Shown: positions 5,723 through 60,062, counted from the first letter of the stretch. The stretch is DNA of 64,000 nucleotides from Parasphingorhabdus sp. (GCF_036964565.1 NZ_JBALTN010000011.1:54889-118888), one strand, 5' to 3'. The notes: generated from the sequence alone by a model not told the origin. Program-made: numbers and translations.

Positions 5723-8014
5723 TCACTTATCGATTTCTGCCATATGTTCATCTGCGCCGTCGTCGTCTGGTCGCGACGGCCCCGCTTCTGTCGCCGAATC
5801 ATGCGACAGCCGGGCCAGTTTCGCCGGATTGAGCCGGATCGTCACCCGCGTGCCGCCGTCCGCGGCGTCGCTGAATTTCATCTCCCCAAAATGTTCCTCG
5901 ACGATTTTCTTGACGATCGCCAGGCCAAGCCCGGTGCCGCTGGCCCGGGTCGTCATATAGGGTTCGACGATCCGATCCCGCTCGATCGGCAGGCCGATGC
6001 CGTTGTCGGTCAATTCGATGACGACAAACTGGTTCTCTGTCCGCACCGCCAGGTTGATGCTGCCATCCGATACGTGAAAGTCGCTGCTGCTTTCCGCTTT
6101 CTGCTGAATGGCTTCGGCGGCATTCTTGATGATGTTGGTCAGCGCCTGCCCCAGTTGCCGCCGGTCGCACACCAGCGAGATGGGCTGGTCGTCCGATTCG
6201 AAGTTGAACGTTATCGCGGACCATGCGACGTCCTGCATGAACAGGGCCTGCTTCAGAATGTCGTGGAGGTTCTCGTCGCGGAAAACCGGCTTGGGCATCC
6301 GCGCGAAGGACGAAAATTCGTCGACGATATTGCGCAGGTCACCCACCTGCCGGACGATCGTGTTGGTGAGATTCTGGAACACGTCGACATCGTCGCTTAT
6401 CCGCGGGCCAAAGCGGCGCTGCAGCCGTTCGGCGGCCAGCTGGATCGGGGTCAGCGGATTCTTGATTTCATGCGCGATCCGCCGCGCGACGTCCGACCAG
6501 GCCGCCCTGCGCTGGTCGAGCAATTGCTGGGTAATATCCTCGAAGGTGATGACGTGGCCGCTTGGCCCGCCGACGATCTTTACCGCCAGCGTCCGCATGT
6601 CGGAATCGGAGGCAAATTCGATGATGCTGTTCTCCACGCCCTCGGCGATCAGCGCCGCAAACTGGGGCGCCGCCTTGCCGATATCGGCTTCCAGAAGATC
6701 GTCGAGCGGTTTCGAAAGCAGCGACTGGGCCTGGGAATTGACCAGGCGGATCTCGCCCTTTTCATCGAGGCTGATGATCCCGGCGGTCACCGATTCGAGC
6801 ACCGCCTCGATAAAGGCGCGCCTGCTGCCCAGTTGCTCGTTTGCCGTGATCAGCGCGGTGGTCTGTGTTTCCAGCCGTTCGGTCATTCGGTTGAACGCGC
6901 GTCCGAGCGTCCCGATCTCGTCATTTTCAAAGGTGGTCGGTACGCGCGTCGCCAGATCGCCCTCCGTGACCCGCTTGGCCGCGTGCACGAGGTCGCTGAC
7001 CGGCCGCACCATGCGGTCCGCCACCAATAGCGCGATCCACAGGACCAGGCCGACAATCAGCAGCGAGATGACGAACAGGGCCACGTTGAACTGGAGCTGC
7101 AGGCTCCTGGAGCGGGAAAACAGCTCCTCATAGTCGGCGAGCACGGCCTGCGCGCGTTCCCACTGGCTGAGCGCCAGCATGTCGGAATCCCGCGCCGCGT
7201 ACAGGAAGATTCGCGAACTCAGATCCAGAGCGGTGACGGCCTCGATCTTGTTGGGCCGGGCCGTGACCACGTAATTCTGGCCTTTCTGAAGCTGTTGCAG
7301 GACGGCTTCGGTGATCTTGGGGCGCTGGTCCGCATTGTCGGGGTCGACGGCGGCCGCGGTTCGGGCCACGCCGTCGGCGCCGATCTCGATGATCGCCGAT
7401 TCGTTCAGCTTGCGCGACAACACCTGAAAGACATAGCCTTCGGCAAATTCCGGGCTTTCGAGATCCGCCTGCTGAAGATAGTTGCGCAGGTCGTTGGCCA
7501 TGGTGATCGTTTCTTCACCGACTTCCCGCTGATTCTGTTCGTAATAGCCGCGCGCCAGATCATTGGCATTTTCCAGCATCCCCCTCGCGCGATCGGAGAA
7601 CCAGAATTCCACGCCATATTGGAACAGCAGCGAGGCAAATATCACGACCAGCAGCATCGGTATGCTGGCGACCAGCGAGAACAGGGCGACCAAGCGGACG
7701 TGCAGCCGGCCCTTGCTGCCGATCGAGGACCGGGCTGCCCTGCCCTTTGCAATCCGCCGGCCGAACAGCACCAGCAGGGTCATCGCCGGGATCAGGTTGC
7801 CGACCAGCAGCGCTGCGGTCAGCGGCGGCGAGATGAAATCGGTCTGGTCGGACTGGCGGCTCAGCAGGAAATAGGTGCCGAGCATGATCGCGCCGAACAG
7901 CAGGATCACCACCCATTCCACCCGCCGCATCACGGCTTCCTTCTCCGCCATCAGCGACAGGCGTCGCAGCCAGTTGGGCACGCGCGGATCCGGGGGTTGG
8001 TTATACGCCGTCAT
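5723..8014 (-). CDS. ntrY: Sensor histidine kinase NtrY
   Basis: TM helices, HAMP, PAS, an H-box (HEIKNPLTPI) and an HATPase domain. I chose the start at internal ATG 8014; the ORF track extends to 8053. Confidence 0.85.
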   Translation of the reverse strand: MTAYNQPPDPRVPNWLRRLSLMAEKEAVMRRVEWVVILLFGAIMLGTYFLLSRQSDQTDFISPPLTAALLVGNLIPAMTLLVLFGRRIAKGRAARSSIGSKGRLHVRLVALFSLVASIPMLLVVIFASLLFQYGVEFWFSDRARGMLENANDLARGYYEQNQREVGEETITMANDLRNYLQQADLESPEFAEGYVFQVLSRKLNESAIIEIGADGVARTAAAVDPDNADQRPKITEAVLQQLQKGQNYVVTARPNKIEAVTALDLSSRIFLYAARDSDMLALSQWERAQAVLADYEELFSRSRSLQLQFNVALFVISLLIVGLVLWIALLVADRMVRPVSDLVHAAKRVTEGDLATRVPTTFENDEIGTLGRAFNRMTERLETQTTALITANEQLGSRRAFIEAVLESVTAGIISLDEKGEIRLVNSQAQSLLSKPLDDLLEADIGKAAPQFAALIAEGVENSIIEFASDSDMRTLAVKIVGGPSGHVITFEDITQQLLDQRRAAWSDVARRIAHEIKNPLTPIQLAAERLQRRFGPRISDDVDVFQNLTNTIVRQVGDLRNIVDEFSSFARMPKPVFRDENLHDILKQALFMQDVAWSAITFNFESDDQPISLVCDRRQLGQALTNIIKNAAEAIQQKAESSSDFHVSDGSINLAVRTENQFVVIELTDNGIGLPIERDRIVEPYMTTRASGTGLGLAIVKKIVEEHFGEMKFSDAADGGTRVTIRLNPAKLARLSHDSATEAGPSRPDDDGADEHMAEIDK

Positions 8015-8110
8015 TGTGCTTTCAATACAACAGTTTCGTTGCGGGAAAAGCACTTATATTGCAAAAATATCACGGTTCAGCCAACCAGACCGTCCGTTCA
8101 TCGCGCGCGT

Positions 8111-9532
<1,422 letters not shown>

Positions 9533-9547
9533 GCTGTTGTCCTGACG

Positions 9548-10621
9548 TCAGTTTTTCGGGGCTAGGGGGAGGAACAGGGTGAAGCGGCTGAGCTCCTCCT
9601 GGTTTTCGCGGTCGTAGCGGATGCGGCCGTTCATATCGCGCATCAGCTTCTTGACGAGGGCGAGGCCGAGGCCCTGCCCTTCCTTCTTGGTCGAGACGAA
9701 GGGCGAGAATATCTCGCGCTCGAGCTCGACCGGCACGCCGGGGCCATTGTCGCAGACCATCACCTGGATCGGCAGGCGGATCGCGGCATTCTCGCCCTGG
9801 GCGGAGAGCGAGGCGCCGAAGCTGTAGCGGGTGATGATGCGGATTTCCGGGTTGGCCAGATGGCGGGTGGCGTCGACGGCGTTGGCGAGCAGGTTGGTCA
9901 GCACCTGCATCATCGCGTCGGGGTCGATCAGCGCGTCGGGCAGCGACGGGTCGAACTTGTCGCGGATCCTGACCCGCTGGCCGCTCGCTGCCTCGGTCGA
10001 GCGGCGGGCGCGGTCGATCAGGCTGTGGATGTTGACGGCGCGGGTCTGGGCCGGCTGGGTCGAGGACAGGGTCTGCATGCGGTCGAGCAGGTTGACCACG
10101 CGCTCGACCTCGCCGGTGATCATCTGGGTCAGCGGCTTCTGCGATTCGTCGAGCTGCCGGTCGAGCAATTGCGCGGCGCCGCGGATCGCGGCGAGCGGAT
10201 TCTTGATCTCGTGGCTGAGGATGTCGGGCGCGCGGATCGCGAGATTGGAGGGATCGCCGGCGTCGCTTTCGAGGATCGGGCCGTCCTGCGGCAGCAGCGA
10301 CAGCGCGATCAGCCGCCAGGCGGAATCGGAGGCCAGCGGATGGATGTCGAAATCGGCGATGCCGAGCTTGCGCTCGTCGCTCGAGACGACGACGCTGCGG
10401 GCGGTGAGGCTGATTTCGGTGTCGGTCAGCGCGGCGTCCAGCCGCGGGTCGGAAAACTGCAATATCTCGCCGATCGGTCGCCCCACGAGATGCTTGGCGC
10501 TGGTCCCGAACAGCGCTTCGCCGGCAGGATTGACGCGGGTCACGCAATGCCGCGAATCGATGACGATCAGGGCGTGGCTGAGCCCGGCGAGGATCTGTTC
10601 TCCCGAAGGGATGCCGTCCAT
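9548..10621 (-). CDS. ntrB: Nitrogen regulation sensor kinase NtrB
   Basis: 357 aa with PAS, an H-box (HEIKNPL) and HATPase. It is directly upstream of ntrC. Confidence 0.85.
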   Translation of the reverse strand: MDGIPSGEQILAGLSHALIVIDSRHCVTRVNPAGEALFGTSAKHLVGRPIGEILQFSDPRLDAALTDTEISLTARSVVVSSDERKLGIADFDIHPLASDSAWRLIALSLLPQDGPILESDAGDPSNLAIRAPDILSHEIKNPLAAIRGAAQLLDRQLDESQKPLTQMITGEVERVVNLLDRMQTLSSTQPAQTRAVNIHSLIDRARRSTEAASGQRVRIRDKFDPSLPDALIDPDAMMQVLTNLLANAVDATRHLANPEIRIITRYSFGASLSAQGENAAIRLPIQVMVCDNGPGVPVELEREIFSPFVSTKKEGQGLGLALVKKLMRDMNGRIRYDRENQEELSRFTLFLPLAPKN

Positions 10622-33113: not shown

Positions 33114-33187
33114 TGGAGCGGGTGAAGGGAATCGAACCCTCGTCGTAAGCTTGGAAGGCTTCTGCTCTACCATTGAGCTACACCCGC
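33114..33187 (-). tRNA. tRNA-Gly (anticodon UCC)
   Basis: The reverse complement GCGGGTGTAGCTCAATGGTAGAGCAGAAGCCTTCCAAGCTTACGACGAGGGTTCGATTCCCTTCACCCGCTCCA folds as a cloverleaf. It has a 7-bp acceptor stem, a CTTCCAA anticodon loop, a TTCGATT T-loop and an encoded CCA. Confidence 0.9.
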
Positions 33188-55042: not shown

Positions 55043-55684
55043 TCAATAGTCGAGTGGGATGATATCGCCGGCCTTCTCGGCATAGCGTTCGGCCTTGTCA
55101 TAGCTGATCGGCACGACAGCGGGGTCGTCGCAGCGGTGCCGGGCGACCACGTCTTCTCCCTTGCGCACGAAAACGCCGTCTTCCATCGCCGGATCATTTG
55201 GTTCGCCGGCGGTGAAATTGGTGCGGATGACCCGGCTGTAGACGACATATTGATTGTCGCCCCGCCGGAATTGCAACTGGGCCTCACCGCCACCCGAATA
55301 GGGGACGGAGGCAAAGGCCAGCCGGTCGGCGCTGTCGGTGTTCGGCCAGCTGAGTTCGGGTTTCTGCCCCGCCGCGCCGTAGCGATATTGCGCGACCGTG
55401 ACGCCTACGGGGTTCTTGACCCCGCAGACCGACGCAATCTTCCGGTTTTCGAGCTGGCAGGAAAACACGACGTCCTCCTGAGCGGTGCATAATCCGGTGC
55501 CCGCAGGCGCGGCAGCGCCGTCCTTCTGCGGACCCGGTGCGGCCGGTGATACTGACGCCAACTGCTTTGAAGCGGGAGCAAGCTCGGCGTCGGAGCGCGC
55601 CGGATCGGGGGCCGGTTGACTGTCACATCCTGTCAGCAGCAGGGCCGCTGCTGTGGCCGCACCGAGCGCAAACTTGGGGGTCAT
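55043..55684 (-). CDS. Hypothetical lipoprotein
   Basis: 213 aa from ATG 55684, which overlaps the glmU stop (ATGA). It has a lipobox (LLLTGC) and a Pro/Ala-rich linker. Confidence 0.55.
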   Translation of the reverse strand: MTPKFALGAATAAALLLTGCDSQPAPDPARSDAELAPASKQLASVSPAAPGPQKDGAAAPAGTGLCTAQEDVVFSCQLENRKIASVCGVKNPVGVTVAQYRYGAAGQKPELSWPNTDSADRLAFASVPYSGGGEAQLQFRRGDNQYVVYSRVIRTNFTAGEPNDPAMEDGVFVRKGEDVVARHRCDDPAVVPISYDKAERYAEKAGDIIPLDY

Positions 55685-57039
55685 GTCCGTTTCTCCCCGG
55701 CTTTCTTTTTCTGCATGGCCTCGCGAAATTTCTTTGCCCACCCCGGCTTCGCCTTCTGGTCCGCCCGGACCAGCGCAAGATCGTCAGCTGCGACATCCCT
55801 GGTCAGCGTGGCACCGGCGCCTACAATCGCGCCATCCCCGATGGTGACGGGCGCGACAAGGGCGCTGTTCGATCCAATGAACGCGCCCTTGCCAATCACC
55901 GTCTTGTGCTTGAAATAGCCGTCATAATTGCAGGTGATGGTGCCCGCGCCGATATTGGCCCCCTCGCCCACCTCGGCGTCGCCGAGATAGGTCAGATGAT
56001 TGGCCTTTGCGCCCTTGCCCAAGATGGTTTTCTTCATCTCGACGAAGTTGCCGACCTTCGAACCCTCTTCCATCACCGCGCCGGGACGCAGCCGGGCGAA
56101 CGGGCCAACCTTGACGTCCGCGCCGATGGTAGCACCCTCGATATGGCTGTGGCCATGGATGGTGGTGCCGCTGGCAATGGAGACGCCGGGGCCGAAAATC
56201 ACGTTGGGTTCTATCACAACGTCTGAAGCAATTTCCGTATCATGCGAAAACCAGACGGTCCCGGGCGCAATCAGGCTGACACCAGCGGCCATCGCCCGGT
56301 CGCGGCGTCGGGCCTGCCATTCGCCCTCGACGGCGGCCAACTCGGCCCGACTGTTGACTCCAGCAACCTCGGCCGGATCATCGACCTCGATCACCGCGCT
56401 TTTCTGACCCGGCAACATGACGATGTCGGGCAGATAATATTCGCCGGCGGCATTGTCGTTGCTGATCTGGTCGAGCAGGATGAACAGGTCGGTCGAGCGC
56501 GCCGCCATCAGGCCGCTGTTGCACAAAGTGACCTGGCGTTCGGCATCGCTGGCGTCCTTATATTCGACCATTTTCTCGATTTCGCCCTGCTCGTCGGCGA
56601 TGATCCGGCCATAGGCGCCAGCGTTGTCGGGGCGGAAACCGAGGATGACGGCGCGCGGATCGCTGCCGTTGTTGAGCCGAAAGATCATGTCGCGCATGGT
56701 GTCAGCGCTGACCATCGGAACATCGCCATAAAGGATCAGCACATCGCCGGCGAAGCCTTTCAGCGCGTCATGCGCCTGGGCCACGGCGTGACCGGTGCCG
56801 AGCTGGTCATCCTGCACCGCGATCGCCACGTTGCGGCCCGCGACGCTGGCCTCGATCTGCTCCCGGCGCGCGCCGACGACGACGACGGTGCGTTCGACAC
56901 CGATCGAATCGACGGTGTCGAGCAAATGGTGCAGCATCGGCTTGCCGGCGATCGGGTGCAGCACCTTGTGCGTCTCCGACTTCATCCTGGTGCCCTGTCC
57001 GGCGGCCAGGATGATTGCGGCGAGCGGGCGATCTGTCAT
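55681..57039 (-). CDS. glmU: Bifunctional GlcNAc-1-P uridyltransferase / GlcN-1-P acetyltransferase
   Basis: LAAGQGTRM N-terminus and C-terminal left-handed beta-helix hexapeptide repeats. The start is at ATG 57039. Confidence 0.9.
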   Translation of the reverse strand: MTDRPLAAIILAAGQGTRMKSETHKVLHPIAGKPMLHHLLDTVDSIGVERTVVVVGARREQIEASVAGRNVAIAVQDDQLGTGHAVAQAHDALKGFAGDVLILYGDVPMVSADTMRDMIFRLNNGSDPRAVILGFRPDNAGAYGRIIADEQGEIEKMVEYKDASDAERQVTLCNSGLMAARSTDLFILLDQISNDNAAGEYYLPDIVMLPGQKSAVIEVDDPAEVAGVNSRAELAAVEGEWQARRRDRAMAAGVSLIAPGTVWFSHDTEIASDVVIEPNVIFGPGVSIASGTTIHGHSHIEGATIGADVKVGPFARLRPGAVMEEGSKVGNFVEMKKTILGKGAKANHLTYLGDAEVGEGANIGAGTITCNYDGYFKHKTVIGKGAFIGSNSALVAPVTIGDGAIVGAGATLTRDVAADDLALVRADQKAKPGWAKKFREAMQKKKAGEKRT

Positions 57040-57151
57040 CGGGTTACTCCAGAACAAATTGGGTCATTCGGGCCGTGGTCCGGCCATTTGCAGCGGCTAA
57101 TGCCATGCGAAGCGCGCCGAGGCCAGCCTGTTTGTCGGCGCGCGGCACGCA

Positions 57152-58186
57152 TCATTTTGCCGCTTTGCTGCCTTTGCGCCATTTGGTCCACAAATGCCGG
57201 GCCAGCATGAGCGGCGGCATCCGCAGCCAGTGGGAGCGGACGTAGAAGGCAAAGCGGGTGAGCTTGCGGGTTTCCCGGCCGAAGCCGTCGCGCGCGAGCA
57301 TCCGCCGGGCATAAAGATAATCGGCAAATTCGGTCTGGCCGGCCCGATATTTGTAGACCGGTGTATGGTAGAGGCGTGCCGCAAGCCGCAACGCGCGCTC
57401 CATTTCGCGAACCAGACCATGGGTTTTGGCGCGCACGGCCAGCTCCGTCCAGAATTCCTCGTCGGCTTCGGAAAATTCCCGGATCAGCCGGTCGATGTCC
57501 CACAGGTTGCGCAATCCGCCTGCGAGGTCGCCGTCAGCAAACAGGTGCGCGATCGAATGCAGGACCATGTCGGTCGGGGCCATGACGTGCAGGCCGCTGT
57601 CCAGCGCAACGGCATTGTTGAGCATCGCCTGCGCATCCGGGTCCGGGCGCGCCGTCAGCGGCAATATCGTGTGATGCACGTCGATCATCCGGTCCCGCTC
57701 CCGGTGGATCATCGGCGGCAGTTCATGCATATGCTGGCGATAATATTCGTCGTCATAGGGGTCGGGCTTGACCCATTCCCATCCGGCATCGAGCAAAGCC
57801 GTCTCGACGGCGGGCAGGTCGTCGCGGTCCACCATGATATCCAAATCGCCGATGCTTCGCCCCACGCCGGCGGAGAGATTCGCTGCAACATAGGCGGTGC
57901 CTTTCATCAGCACGATCTTGCCCGGATAGCCGGCCAGTGCACGGCGAGCGCAATCGGCTTCCCACAGGGCTTGCCGGCGGGCCAGGTCGTGGGCACCGAC
58001 CGCGTCCTGCAGAACCGCGCGCACCCGATCCGGAACCGCGACATACTGCAGCCGGTGGGCCAGCGCTCCGATCAGCGATTCGGCGCGGGCGATGCTGATC
58101 AGTTCGGACCACTGGTGGCTTGCCAGCGTCGCGACGCTGGCCGGATCACGCAGTGCATCAACCAATATCCGCGCATCGTGCATCAT
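57152..58186 (-). CDS. Uncharacterised nucleotidyltransferase-family protein
   Basis: 344 aa. GDLDIMV resembles the GS/GD...D.D pol-beta-type NTase motif. Its start overlaps the kinase-like gene's stop by 4 nt. Confidence 0.55.
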   Translation of the reverse strand: MMHDARILVDALRDPASVATLASHQWSELISIARAESLIGALAHRLQYVAVPDRVRAVLQDAVGAHDLARRQALWEADCARRALAGYPGKIVLMKGTAYVAANLSAGVGRSIGDLDIMVDRDDLPAVETALLDAGWEWVKPDPYDDEYYRQHMHELPPMIHRERDRMIDVHHTILPLTARPDPDAQAMLNNAVALDSGLHVMAPTDMVLHSIAHLFADGDLAGGLRNLWDIDRLIREFSEADEEFWTELAVRAKTHGLVREMERALRLAARLYHTPVYKYRAGQTEFADYLYARRMLARDGFGRETRKLTRFAFYVRSHWLRMPPLMLARHLWTKWRKGSKAAK

Positions 58187-59055
58187 GGCGCCTCGCTCCA
58201 GAGGGCCTGGATCAGCTCTTCCGCCTGTTCGGTGGACTGGTAATCCATCGCCTTGACCGGAACCGTGCCGACAAATCGCGTCAGCGCACGAAAGCCGGGC
58301 TCGCCCAGCGCAACATAATTGGTCGAGGCCTGAGTCAGTCGCACGAATATTTCGGACTGTCCCATGTCCCGCAAGGCAGGTGCGTAACCGAAGCGGGGAA
58401 ACAGCAGCAGCGCCGGGCGGGCGGACTGGTCCATCCGTTCGATCGCGCCCAGAGGCGGTACCAGATGGCGGATATCGCCCTTGGGCGTCTGCTTCATATC
58501 CGGACCGAAACGGTCGGCGGATACAACCGCCTGCATGGCGGCAATCGCCTGATTCTTAAGGCTGATCAGACGGGGAAAGGGAAATATGTCGCCGGTATCA
58601 AGGCTGAGCAGGGCAAATTCGTCACCCATGAAGCGCCATCCGCGTTCCGCCAGCATCGCGGACAGGGTCGACTTGCCCGATCCCGACAGGCCGGTCATGA
58701 CCAGTGCCCTGCCGTCCTTTTCGACGCTGCTGGCATGGAGCAGGAGATGCCGGCGCCAGCCGAGCGCCATTTGCAGGTTCATCCCCATCTCGGCGGCCAG
58801 TAGTCCCTGCGCGAGTGGCAGCGGCGCGGCGTCGGGCAGCCAGAAATCGCCACCAATATGGACGGAGGGACGGATATGGCGGCGCCAGGGCTTTTCCGGT
58901 TCCAGCCGCACCGTGAAGTCGACGATGTCGTCCGGTGGTGCCGGATATTGCGCATATAGCGCGGCCAGTTGATCGAGCGGCTGCTGCCAGGCGGACGCGA
59001 TCCGGAAGGCCGCCGGTCCGATTTTCAGCGAGATCTGATTCAGGCCGGGCATCAT
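58183..59055 (-). CDS. HPr kinase/phosphorylase-related P-loop protein
   Basis: 290 aa. The P-loop GLSGSGKST (nt 58666-58692) matches the GxSGxGKS signature of HPr kinases. There is no N-terminal HprK domain. Confidence 0.65.
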   Translation of the reverse strand: MMPGLNQISLKIGPAAFRIASAWQQPLDQLAALYAQYPAPPDDIVDFTVRLEPEKPWRRHIRPSVHIGGDFWLPDAAPLPLAQGLLAAEMGMNLQMALGWRRHLLLHASSVEKDGRALVMTGLSGSGKSTLSAMLAERGWRFMGDEFALLSLDTGDIFPFPRLISLKNQAIAAMQAVVSADRFGPDMKQTPKGDIRHLVPPLGAIERMDQSARPALLLFPRFGYAPALRDMGQSEIFVRLTQASTNYVALGEPGFRALTRFVGTVPVKAMDYQSTEQAEELIQALWSEAP

Positions 59056-59336
59056 CCCGTGATCCTCGAGACCAGTCCCAGCGCGGACAATTCTTCCAGC
59101 CGCGCGAGGACAATGGTCTCCGTGTCGGTCGCCAGCTCGACATCATATTCGGTCGCGAGGAATGCAGCAATTTCGGGTGCCGACATCGCGCGGTCTGCCA
59201 TCACGTCCAGGATCGCTGGGGCAGGATCCGCGAGCATATGGGTGATCCCGGAGGTGCGATGAAACAGCAAGGTCATGCTGTCCAGCTCGTGCCAGATCAG
59301 ATCATCCGCGGCAGCGGCCCGATATTTAGGGGTCAT
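59052..59336 (-). CDS. PqqD-like small protein (putative peptide-binding / RRE-type)
   Basis: 94 aa. The size and pattern (LFHRTSGITHMLADPAPAILD...EIAAFL) resemble the PqqD family. Its stop overlaps the kinase-like start by 4 nt. Confidence 0.6.
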   Translation of the reverse strand: MTPKYRAAAADDLIWHELDSMTLLFHRTSGITHMLADPAPAILDVMADRAMSAPEIAAFLATEYDVELATDTETIVLARLEELSALGLVSRITG

Positions 59337-59408
59337 GGCATATTACCTGCGATTCTGGTCCGACATGCCGGCCTGATAGCAGGGAAATGTTAAAATAGGC
59401 TGGTAATA

Positions 59409-59825
59409 TCAGCGCGGCATTTGCAGCGAGGCGTAGCAGGTAAAGCCGCTCTGCCCCGCCTGCAGACGCCGGATGTAGTTGACATAGGCCTGGGACTGAT
59501 CGGGCGCGGTGCCCGGCAGCGTCCGTCCGTTCATCGCCCGACGCACCTCCTCGCCGGTGAAGTTGCGACCGGCAGGCGGAAACGCGCCCGGTGTGTCCGC
59601 CGAGACAATCGAACCGTCCGCGCCAATATAGCCACCGGCGGCGTTGTTGCTGGGAACCGGGATTTCGCAATTGAGCACGGAGCCCGCGGTTTGCGCCAAG
59701 GCCGGCTTGATGCTGACCACCGCCGAAGCGGTTATGGCGCCCATCATCAGCGCGCGACGGCGGGTTACCACGCCGGATGCCTGCGGGCCAGCGGCTGCCG
59801 ATTCCGGTTGAATTTGGTCTGTCAT
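59409..59825 (-). CDS. Hypothetical Tat-signal secreted protein
   Basis: 138 aa from ATG 59825. It has the twin-arginine motif TRRRALMMG followed by a hydrophobic region and ALAQ. The mature part is about 94 aa with 2 Cys. Confidence 0.55.
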   Translation of the reverse strand: MTDQIQPESAAAGPQASGVVTRRRALMMGAITASAVVSIKPALAQTAGSVLNCEIPVPSNNAAGGYIGADGSIVSADTPGAFPPAGRNFTGEEVRRAMNGRTLPGTAPDQSQAYVNYIRRLQAGQSGFTCYASLQMPR

Positions 59826-60062
59826 CAAGCTCGGGTCCGTGGTTTTCCTAGTTTCAGTTTTCGACGCATAAGCAGAAATCTCGCAAAAAGCGAGCAATCA
59901 GTCGCCGCCGGAAGAAGGCGTCTCCTATCGGGACATAGACATGAAAATTGTTAACATCGCCTATACGCGGTGCTGGTTGGTGCAGCGTCCGGCAATATTC
60001 CGTTTGCCGATCCGGCCCGGGTCCGCCTAAATGCCGCCCATGAATATGTCAGAATCGGCCAG

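Follow-up and report, generated by a model that had tools for sequence, protein, structure and literature searches.

Which molecule is modified when a bacterium encodes, in one short operon, a PqqD-like protein, an HPr-kinase-like protein and a nucleotidyltransferase (NTase)? This question is raised by a locus of Parasphingorhabdus sp. contained in a 64,000-nucleotide stretch of DNA (GCF_036964565.1 NZ_JBALTN010000011.1:54889-118888; hereafter, the window), in which the three genes are preceded on the same strand by a gene for a protein of 138 aa. Judged from profile matches, the 94-aa PqqD-like product would be a PqqD-family RRE, that is, a recognition element of peptides that are synthesised ribosomally and modified post-translationally (RiPPs), and the third product would be a Pol-beta-type NTase of the NTP_transf_5 family. 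The four genes form a real operon, and sequence comparison across genomes marks the upstream protein (hereafter, the precursor) as a conserved fourth component and not a bystander. The reading preferred here is that of a four-gene leader-guided operon in which the trio probably modifies the precursor before its export by the twin-arginine translocation (Tat) pathway, the product being processed afterwards.

The upstream protein and its leader across genomes

The order phoR, precursor, PqqD, kinase and NTase is retained in about 50 of 54 species loci of the Sphingomonadales, where the identity of the precursor (52-84%) exceeds that of the PqqD protein (33-69%). The trio arrangement was found in more than 150 loci, far above chance, and the kinase gene is followed by the NTase gene in nearly all loci of every class sampled (Sphingomonadales, other Alphaproteobacteria, Chromatiales, Methylococcales, Rhodocyclales/Nitrosomonadales/Burkholderiales and one Gemmatimonadota metagenome-assembled genome (MAG)). 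Two unannotated precursor families are defined here. That of the Sphingomonadales (A3) has 3,247 homologues, all of them 'hypothetical' and none with a Pfam domain, and that of the Betaproteobacteria (A5, about 200 aa) has at least 665 members, all named 'hypothetical protein' and likewise devoid of Pfam domains. A BLAST search with the window precursor, whose ATG at 59825 agrees with the starts of its orthologues, gave no homologue outside Sphingomonadales. When the slot directly 5' of the PqqD gene was itself read outside this order, it always contained a same-strand open reading frame (ORF) of 83-276 aa, whose N-terminal part is of the type RRRLIRGALGVAPMVLTLRSGTLAA and whose body is otherwise unrelated. 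A slot ORF with the leader was present in 17/17 evaluable distant genome loci, and two apparent exceptions (L061 and L067) yielded their slot ORFs on re-reading.

The specificity of this leader was manifested in searches with a hidden Markov model (HMM) trained on 13 distant genome loci, in which every match to the 20,765 six-frame fragments from the genome loci fell within a slot ORF. An independent test was provided by 80 metagenome loci retrieved by kinase alignment anchored on the non-Sphingomonadales clade: all of the approximately 40 leader matches of at least 12 bits lay in plus-strand ORFs ending 220-516 nt before the kinase, and none of that score fell off the slot among 6,389 independent six-frame fragments. 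A slot ORF was found in 52/52 metagenome loci having at least 1 kb of upstream sequence; 48 of the 52 carried an RR leader by a simple regular expression, and in at least three of the other four the wrong ORF had been picked. The distant leader follows the consensus RR-x-[FL]-x-K-x-G-x-G-A-A-[P/G]-V-L-L-T(95%)-L-x-S(82%)-R-P-x-L-A(71%), with a Tat-like start S-R-R-R-[FL]-x-K, and the Sphingomonadales leader is two residues shorter (ending in ASAVVSI[KR]PALA, with QT after the cleavage site). Profile-profile comparison of A3 with A5 by hhalign aligned the leader alone (25 columns, E 8.5e-5), and in the reverse search by the A5 precursor profile three of the four proteins precede a 90-96-aa ORF, a PF27840 kinase and a PF14907 NTase. 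A preliminary description of this DNA had named the Tat-signal protein as the only candidate substrate in cis; it is the best candidate, and its case is now strengthened, the upstream gene being a conserved fourth component with a family-wide RR leader. The trio itself is syntenic far beyond Sphingomonadales.

Within the precursor, the leader runs from a variable polar N-region through RRR (22-24) and the h-region ALMMGAITASAVVSI to a c-region KPALA with an A-x-A motif. R23 is invariant and RR is retained in all orthologues of the precursor, RR being also invariant in a 25-member distant family. By inspection and alignment, the features of a Tat-type signal can be recognised (RR, a mildly hydrophobic h-region, a basic c-region residue and A-x-A, as in TRRRALMMG...SIKPALA before Q in the window), and many distant leaders are near-perfect for the Tat consensus S-R-R-x-F-L-K (SRRRFAKA, GRRQFLKK, GRRSFLKR), so that the leader is taken from its motifs to be a putative Tat signal. 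Beyond it, the junction residues Q45, G48, S49, N52 and C53 are invariant among precursor orthologues. In precursors from outside Sphingomonadales, a Cys lies no more than 10 residues past the predicted cleavage in 51/59 (86%, against 22% expected) and Ser/Thr after the predicted cleavage site is also enriched (25% vs 16%), these sequences being related and the p-values hence inflated. The Betaproteobacterial junction reads C-x-[ST]-P-S-G-x-x-S-G, with two Ser nearly invariant.

The window precursor gave no match in Pfam or NCBIfam, and the same was true of precursors from 11 clades. Its AlphaFold 2 (AF2) model has a moderate overall confidence (predicted local distance difference test (pLDDT) 60.5), with a small domain at residues 63-125 (pLDDT 70-86), and no match to the folds in the PDB was found for this model. 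At the C-terminus, nearly all positions of the tail S126-R138 are invariant, yet it is predicted to be unstructured (pLDDT 45-57). Two Cys are conserved in the precursor, C53 and C130.

The three enzymes

The three family assignments, originally read from the sequence, were borne out by profile HMMs. The PqqD-like protein scored 57.8 bits against NCBIfam TIGR04353 (PqqD_rel_X, 'HPr-rel-A system PqqD family peptide chaperone'; cut-off 35), and the Pfam PqqD model gave 19.8, under its gathering threshold of 23.4. The kinase matched TIGR04352 (HprK_rel_A, 'HprK-related kinase A') over its full length (2-280/280; 237.2 bits, cut-off 200), and it is assigned to Pfam PF27840 by precomputed annotation. 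Both equivalog cut-offs are passed and the two genes overlap by 4 nt, which places the pair in the HPr-rel-A system. In agreement with this, the window kinase is 100% identical to an NCBI protein of Parasphingorhabdus sp. (P0001) named HprK-related kinase A, so that the catalogued set with a PqqD partner, named in the preliminary description, is correct. The family is large: it comprises at least 4,911 clusters when 90% identity is applied and, at 50% identity and E <= 1e-30, 194.

This kinase is not a canonical HprK, as had been supposed from the lack of the rest of that protein. The P-loop G-x-S-G-x-G-K-[ST] does sit in an H...G.SG.GKS...RG.RL..D[DE] core, as in HprK/P, but the model of canonical HprK (TIGR00679) scored 16.2 bits, far under its cut-off of 240, and neither Pfam Hpr_kinase_C nor Hpr_kinase_N matched at E <= 0.01. 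An AF2 model built from 53 sequences (pLDDT 96.7) was compared by Foldseek and resembled ATP-dependent phosphoenolpyruvate carboxykinase (PEPCK) over both domains (E about 1e-7, template modelling score 0.55-0.61) and HprK/P over the nucleotide-binding domain (E about 4e-4); the sequence profile also reached the HprK structures 1KO7, 1JB1, 2QMH and 1KNX in the PDB at E about 1e-3. On this predicted structure, the protein is a P-loop kinase of the PEPCK/HprK fold. H107, G125, G127, K128, T130, D145, E146 and K167 are invariant in it. The NTase, for its part, matches PF14907 NTP_transf_5 with 166 bits (cut-off 31.2; E 1.5e-48) and had no relative in the PDB by sequence; K95, G96, D114, D116, D169 and six His are 98-100% conserved among 122 sequences. 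From these invariant residues, and from the confident fold of the kinase, both enzymes look catalytically competent.

Natural fusions join the members of the trio in other genomes, in the form of PqqD-kinase proteins of 420-434 aa (P0165 and P0207; also L082) and of kinase-NTase proteins of about 700 aa (P0167, P0228 and P0236). Together with the ATGA coupling and the conserved kinase-NTase order, they indicate that the enzymes are functionally linked. Membership of a known anti-phage defence system was ruled out, the PADLOC models having given for the four proteins a single match (E 0.0014), confined to the P-loop.

Known systems, a proposed mechanism and its alternatives

The combination of an RRE, an HprK-like kinase and an NTase is already known. 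In paeninodin-type lasso clusters, including that of Sphingobium yanoikuyae, an HPr-kinase homologue phosphorylates the C-terminal Ser of the precursor before further processing, and in pseudomycoidin the NTase of the cluster puts hexose(s) on that phosphate (PMC8498205). The Linear Polyphosphorylated Peptides (LPP) of Bacillota, to which the family is described as restricted, are made by a set composed of the RRE LppB, the HprK-like kinase LppK, the NTP-transferase LppN, the SipW-like signal peptidase I LppS and the MsbA-like exporter LppD, encoded in clusters that lie in capsule loci (Popov et al., Nat Commun 2026, PMC13381572). Their precursors, LppA, have 35-200 aa, a conserved leader YxxPxVLxHQxIxFETxxS and hypervariable C-termini; LppK adds 1-4 phosphates on core Ser3 and LppS requires LppB (PMC13381572). 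The earlier proposal of an undescribed chemistry and target is therefore not supported for the combination as such, which has been studied in paeninodin, pseudomycoidin and LPP. What stands is that the TIGR04352 family itself is not tied to a characterised pathway: neither TIGR04352 nor TIGR04353, nor a Tat-type precursor belonging to a system of this sort, is treated in the searchable literature, where the substrate and product of this family are undescribed.

Among characterised systems, LPP is the closest. The likeness to it, drawn from descriptions of that system and not from the LppK/LppN sequences, extends to a discrete RRE with an HprK-like kinase and an NTP-transferase working on a linear non-lasso precursor, to a precursor whose N-terminal leader is conserved and whose remainder is hypervariable, to a (candidate) phospho-acceptor in the form of a hydroxyl residue located a few positions beyond the point of leader cleavage, to leader removal by what would be signal-peptidase-I-type chemistry, and to clusters often placed within polysaccharide loci. 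In 86% of the Sphingomonadales precursors a Ser stands at the counterpart of LPP Ser3. Unlike in LPP, the operon has no gene for a SipW- or signal-peptidase-I-like peptidase, and none was found within +/-10 kb in syntenic relatives or among the ORFs around the window locus; it has no MsbA-like exporter; its leader is twin-arginine signal-like (RR-x-[FL]-x-K...[P/G]VLLTLxSRPxLA) instead of YxxPxVLxHQxIxFETxxS; it occurs in Pseudomonadota and in a few further Gram-negative phyla; its kinase belongs to TIGR04352/PF27840 and not to the Hpr_kinase_C type of the LPP and lasso kinases; and in Sphingomonadales it is vertically inherited as part of the core genome, whereas LPP are patchy and driven by horizontal gene transfer. 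As far as sequences and analogy can tell, the operon would thus act like an LPP system yet fail three of its defining features, namely the peptidase, the exporter and the YxxP leader.

With paeninodin and pseudomycoidin (PadeK, ThcoK, SyanK, PsmK/PsmN) the operon shares the B1 PqqD-like RRE, the HPr-kinase homologue and the NTase. It differs from the lasso clusters in that there is no Asn-synthetase-like macrolactam synthetase (C) and no transglutaminase-like B2 protease within +/-10 kb, and no short lasso precursor; in addition, the lasso phospho-site is the very C-terminal Ser and none of the precursors studied here ends in Ser. More broadly, radical SAM, cyclodehydratase, lasso cyclase, leader protease and ABC exporter genes were all absent within +/-10 kb in 84%-identical syntenic relatives, where pstSCAB are the sole ABC genes, which upholds the preliminary description on the lack of the usual RiPP partners. 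As to HprK/P, the kinase shares with it and with ATP-dependent PEPCK the P-loop signature and the fold, but it has no HprK N-terminal domain, no HPr/ptsH context and other partner genes. Taken as a whole, it is rather likely that the system is an uncharacterised proteobacterial counterpart of the LPP or phosphorylated-lasso tailoring module.

Two further comparisons concern the leader. TorD/DmsD-type maturation proteins of Tat redox enzymes are small, all-helical cytoplasmic chaperones of signal peptides, and the maturation that they await is cofactor insertion. Here too the Tat signal would be bound by a small cytoplasmic protein, which would retain the substrate until maturation ends, but this protein would have the winged-helix RRE fold of PqqD, and maturation would consist in covalent phosphorylation or nucleotidylation. 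Bufferin/MNIO systems reportedly rely on Sec-type signals, on an MNIO (DUF692) enzyme with a DUF2063 partner and on Cys chemistry. The present operon resembles in concept these RiPPs guided by signal peptides, that is, bufferins and further MNIO products (Leprevost et al. 2024, PMC11626156), in that a general-secretion signal replaces leader, peptidase and exporter while a partner recognises the precursor, and it differs from them in its Tat-like signal and in its enzymes, a kinase and an NTase.

In the preferred reading, the 138-aa precursor is synthesised with the 44-residue twin-arginine leader seen in the sequence. The RRE would bind the beta-strand-prone h-region of this leader ([P/G/S]-V-hydrophobic-hydrophobic-[T/S]-[L/I]) and present the precursor to the enzymes, as suggested by RRE function, by the conservation of the leader and by the PqqD-kinase fusions. 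The kinase would then phosphorylate Ser/Thr, possibly several times, and by analogy with LppK at Ser3 the likeliest site would be T46/S49 in QTAGS at the junction. The invariant, disordered tail with S126/S133 is an alternative candidate, since the lasso-type HprK-like kinases PadeK and ThcoK phosphorylate a C-terminal Ser. Given the precedent of PsmN and the GT4 glycosyltransferase genes inserted in some operons, the NTP_transf_5 enzyme may extend the phosphate with a nucleotidyl or sugar(-phosphate) group, additional glycosyltransferases joining in some lineages. Modification would occur in the cytoplasm, because all three enzymes are devoid of signal peptides and need NTPs, and the modified, folded protein would then leave by the Tat pathway. 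Signal peptidase I would cut the leader after A-L-A, and C53 and C130 could form a periplasmic disulfide.

The Tat pathway tolerates folded, bulky cargo, which gives its use a rationale, bulky modifications made in the cytoplasm being incompatible with Sec threading. Apparently, the simplest reading is that the Tat-type leader replaces at once the YxxP leader, the signal-peptidase-I-like peptidase and the ABC exporter of LPP, as it would supply the recognition handle, the export route and the cleavage by housekeeping signal peptidase I. The probable place of action of the product is the cell envelope or the exopolysaccharide matrix. More tentatively, and with some doubt, it can be proposed that the PqqD-family RRE has been recruited as a Tat-signal chaperone, which would hold the folded substrate until a (poly)phosphate-linked nucleotide or sugar has been installed near the cleavage site and then release it to Tat. 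The idea of a leader-guided module for peptide or protein modification, with which the study of this locus began, is in any case supported.

Several observations weigh against the preferred reading. The leader has no Y/W of the canonical RRE-binding [Y/W]xxP motif, and the P-x-hydrophobic part is present in about 45% of leaders. Pfam TAT_signal (PF10518) matches 0/62 precursors (0/25 and 0/37) at E <= 1, the NCBIfam Tat profile (TIGR01409) matches none and UCR_Fe-S_N weakly matches 2/37; such short models are insensitive, so that the missing match weakens the Tat label and does not exclude it. The phospho-acceptor is not pinned to one residue, T46/S49 and S126/S133 all being candidates. In the Betaproteobacterial clade the equivalent of LPP Ser3 is usually Cys, and in several Gammaproteobacteria it is Ser; a strict rule placing Ser at +15 from the leader Pro accordingly fails in the former, and the position is kept as a candidate site. 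A C-terminal [SC]-x-x-S-hydrophobic motif, first noticed on inspection of the window and of about 12 genome loci, recurred in 1/52 independent metagenome loci and was discarded as a universal feature; what is retained, more weakly, is a C-terminus conserved within each clade. As the kinase belongs to PF27840 and the lasso-type kinases match Hpr_kinase_C, the transfer of function from the latter is remote, and LppN had no detectable activity in a heterologous host, the final product of LPP being unknown (PMC13381572). Lastly, the fourth protein of the reverse search, from Candidatus Nitrotoga (L167:6001-6651), stands alone with no PqqD, kinase or NTase gene within 6 kb, from which it follows that precursor copies can be unlinked from the enzymes. 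Conversely, four Sphingopyxis-like loci (L042, L047, L048, L051) keep the trio without an adjacent precursor, and there a MarR-family regulator and a TonB-dependent receptor (about 9260-9725 and 7090-9240) replace the precursor and the phoR/pst context.

Part of this evidence could be accommodated if the same RRE-guided enzymology operated with the RR-leader as a dedicated RRE handle and not as a working Tat signal, in which case the product would be released or processed otherwise, for instance by the secreted Trypsin_2 protease that is often a neighbour, or would stay cell-associated. The missing TAT_signal matches point in this direction, as do the Trypsin_2 peptidase adjoining 9/21 well-covered loci and the conservation of the leader across phyla (T 95%, S 82%, R-P in the c-region), which is far greater than in ordinary Tat signals and suggests a specific partner. 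However, the resemblance of many leaders to S-R-R-x-F-L-K, along with the h-region, c-region and A-x-A already described, is that expected of a signal; the Sphingomonadales operon encodes no dedicated exporter or leader peptidase; the Trypsin_2 protein has itself a signal peptide, so it would act post-export; and in a remote variant the VKOR-DsbA fusion speaks for a product that is periplasmic and disulfide-bonded. The handle and Tat roles of the leader are not exclusive, and a leader devoid of the second role is considered unlikely.

A different substrate is rather harder to credit. The trio might act on a distal small peptide or on a sugar or lipid intermediate of an envelope polysaccharide, the upstream protein being a co-regulated partner, and this would fit the Sphingopyxis-like loci, the borders that the system shares with exopolysaccharide/PEP-CTERM loci and, in Sphingomonadales, with glmU-glmS, the nature of PEPCK, the top structural match of the kinase, as a small-molecule kinase, and the fact that LppN activity on a peptide was never shown. 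Against it, a PqqD-family RRE is a peptide-binding adaptor, and a leader of 25-30 residues is the sole feature common to otherwise unrelated upstream proteins, which suggests a reader within the operon. In more than 120 loci across classes the upstream gene adjoins the trio, homologous or analogous sets of kinase, NTase and RRE work on peptides in three characterised systems, and, since stand-alone precursor copies exist, a distal precursor can explain Sphingopyxis. That the operon is a decayed, non-functional remnant of a phosphorylated lasso cluster (B1, kinase and NTase surviving once A, B2, C and D were lost) is very improbable. B1, kinase and NTase are indeed the tailoring set of paeninodin/pseudomycoidin-type clusters, the lasso cluster of Sphingobium yanoikuyae has an HprK-like kinase (PMC8498205), and a Sphingomonas locus (L083) has an Asn-synthase-like gene beside an HprK-like kinase. 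Yet the operon keeps one chromosomal position across the whole order with intact frames, translational coupling and invariant catalytic residues; thousands of homologues pass the equivalog cut-offs, there is a conserved cognate precursor family, and this order-wide conservation, with the absence of B2 and C genes within +/-10 kb, brings the remnant idea close to refutation.

Locus layout, neighbouring genes and significance

The features of the operon are collected in Table 1, and every coordinate given earlier for the three coupled genes and their 4-nt overlaps was confirmed by ORF reading.

Table 1. Coordinates of the operon and of its sequence features in the window
Feature	Position	Strand	Description
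Precursor gene (candidate substrate)	59409-59825	(-)	ORF, 138 aa, upstream of the PqqD gene; ATG at 59825
Leader of the precursor	59694-59825	(-)	Residues 1-44; predicted cleavage after A44
Twin-arginine motif TRRRALMMG	59739-59765	(-)	Residues 21-29
Leader-core junction QTAGSVLNC	59667-59693	(-)	Residues 45-53; candidate modification site (T46, S49) and conserved C53
C-terminal tail SGFTCYASLQMPR	59412-59450	(-)	Residues 126-138
Spacer between precursor and PqqD genes	59337-59408	(-)	72 nt
PqqD-like gene	59052-59336	(-)	ORF, 94 aa
ATGA overlap, PqqD stop/kinase start	59052-59055	(-)	4 nt, read from sequence
Kinase gene	58183-59055	(-)	ORF, 290 aa
Walker-A P-loop GLSGSGKST	58666-58692	(-)	Kinase residues 122-130
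ATGA overlap, kinase stop/NTase start	58183-58186	(-)	4 nt, read from sequence
NTase gene	57152-58186	(-)	ORF, 344 aa
NTase catalytic motif GDLDIMV	57830-57850	(-)	Residues 113-119 (D114, D116)

The spacer between the precursor and PqqD genes holds, as previously noted, a 7-codon ORF, ATGTCGGACCAGAATCGCAGGTAA, which is probably due to chance; no terminator, attenuator or significant structure (folding z = -0.78) was found in it. The GC content of the region is uniform, and the Rfam search gave no match in the operon region, a single tRNA gene at 33117-33187 (-) being the sole Rfam match of the window. Upstream of the precursor ATG, in the divergent phoR/precursor intergenic region, lies a GC-rich 5-bp hairpin with a T-run (CTCGCTTTTTGCGAG ATTTCTGCTT) at 59880-59894 (-); terminator-like sites in this region number 3 against 1.9 expected, which is not above chance.

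At the other end of the operon, the NTase gene is separated from glmU by 94 nt on the same strand. In most other Sphingomonadales an opposite-strand gene for a HAD-family phosphatase intervenes (L016:11869-12822 (-); L014:11843-12517 (-)), and in Sphingomonas cavernae a gene for a BTLCP transglutaminase-like cysteine peptidase is also found there. Because of the intervening HAD gene, the tight spacing of the window is lineage-specific; glmU and glmS were dropped as functional partners, their adjacency being probably plain synteny. A 232-aa ORF at 55043-55741 (-), whose N-terminus resembles that of a lipoprotein (...LLLTGCDSQ) and which matched no family, overlaps as listed the 3' end of glmU (55681-57057). 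A later start codon is likely for it, because relatives have at that place a 214-aa protein without Pfam domain (L001:13369-14013).

Genes related to glycosylation or to the envelope recur around the system. Three Sphingobium species have a GT4 glycosyltransferase gene (PF00534, E 3e-29; also matching 'GT4-conflict') within the operon, on the same strand, between precursor and PqqD (L009:8486-9646 (+); L011:8520-9602; L013:8340-9491), and in Thiospirillum an 800-aa double-GT4 protein is encoded divergently from the precursor and adjoining it (L058:6608-9010 (-)). Exopolysaccharide/exosortase loci adjoin the system in Beta- and Gammaproteobacteria (L092, L121, L124, L141 and L143, about 1.2-3.0 kb upstream of the kinase; L164-L166), a setting that parallels the capsule loci reported for LPP and paeninodin clusters. 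A Poly_export/SLBB protein is encoded directly 5' of the precursor, with PEP-CTERM, Wzz, Wzy_C and GDP-mannose pyrophosphorylase genes close by, and the recurring order is Trypsin_2 protease, Poly_export, precursor, PqqD, kinase and NTase. The GT4, Poly_export, Wzz, Wzy and PEP-CTERM neighbours suggest a link to glycosylation or the envelope.

Two more remote arrangements were observed. A Phycisphaeraceae MAG (L077:5767-10606) encodes an NTP_transf_5-SET-domain fusion, an 84-aa ORF with a weak match to the leader HMM, a fusion of VKOR and DsbA, which is a disulfide-forming enzyme, and then an HprK-like kinase. The Sphingomonas locus L083 (6088-12566) encodes an Asn_synthase-like protein, a sugar-transfer ATP-grasp protein, a 164-aa ORF, an HprK-like kinase that passes the Pfam Hpr_kinase_C cut-off, a 76-aa ORF and a 2OG-Fe(II) oxygenase; from these domains it may be a lasso-like or other RiPP cluster using another kinase subfamily.

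The analysis provides a concrete substrate candidate for TIGR04352/TIGR04353/PF14907, a large cassette that is catalogued and uncharacterised, and it widens the logic of RRE, HprK-like kinase and NTase on a linear precursor from Bacillota to Pseudomonadota, where leader removal and export would have a different solution. It may also help to explain the function of LPP and of phosphorylated lasso peptides. If the leader is truly a Tat signal, the system would offer, as far as the searchable literature shows, the first case in which a Tat signal peptide is read by a RiPP-type recognition element. The conservation of the operon across a whole order, together with its exopolysaccharide, PEP-CTERM and glycosyltransferase neighbours, points to a housekeeping role in the envelope or biofilm and not to an antibiotic. 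Should the RRE prove to serve as a Tat-signal chaperone, RiPP leader recognition would be merged with Tat proofreading, and a widespread class of Tat-exported, RiPP-logic phospho(glyco)proteins would exist in thousands of genomes, forming part of the core genome in Sphingomonadales and bordering, in Beta- and Gammaproteobacteria, on exosortase/PEP-CTERM exopolysaccharide loci, as a previously unrecognised component of the envelope or matrix.

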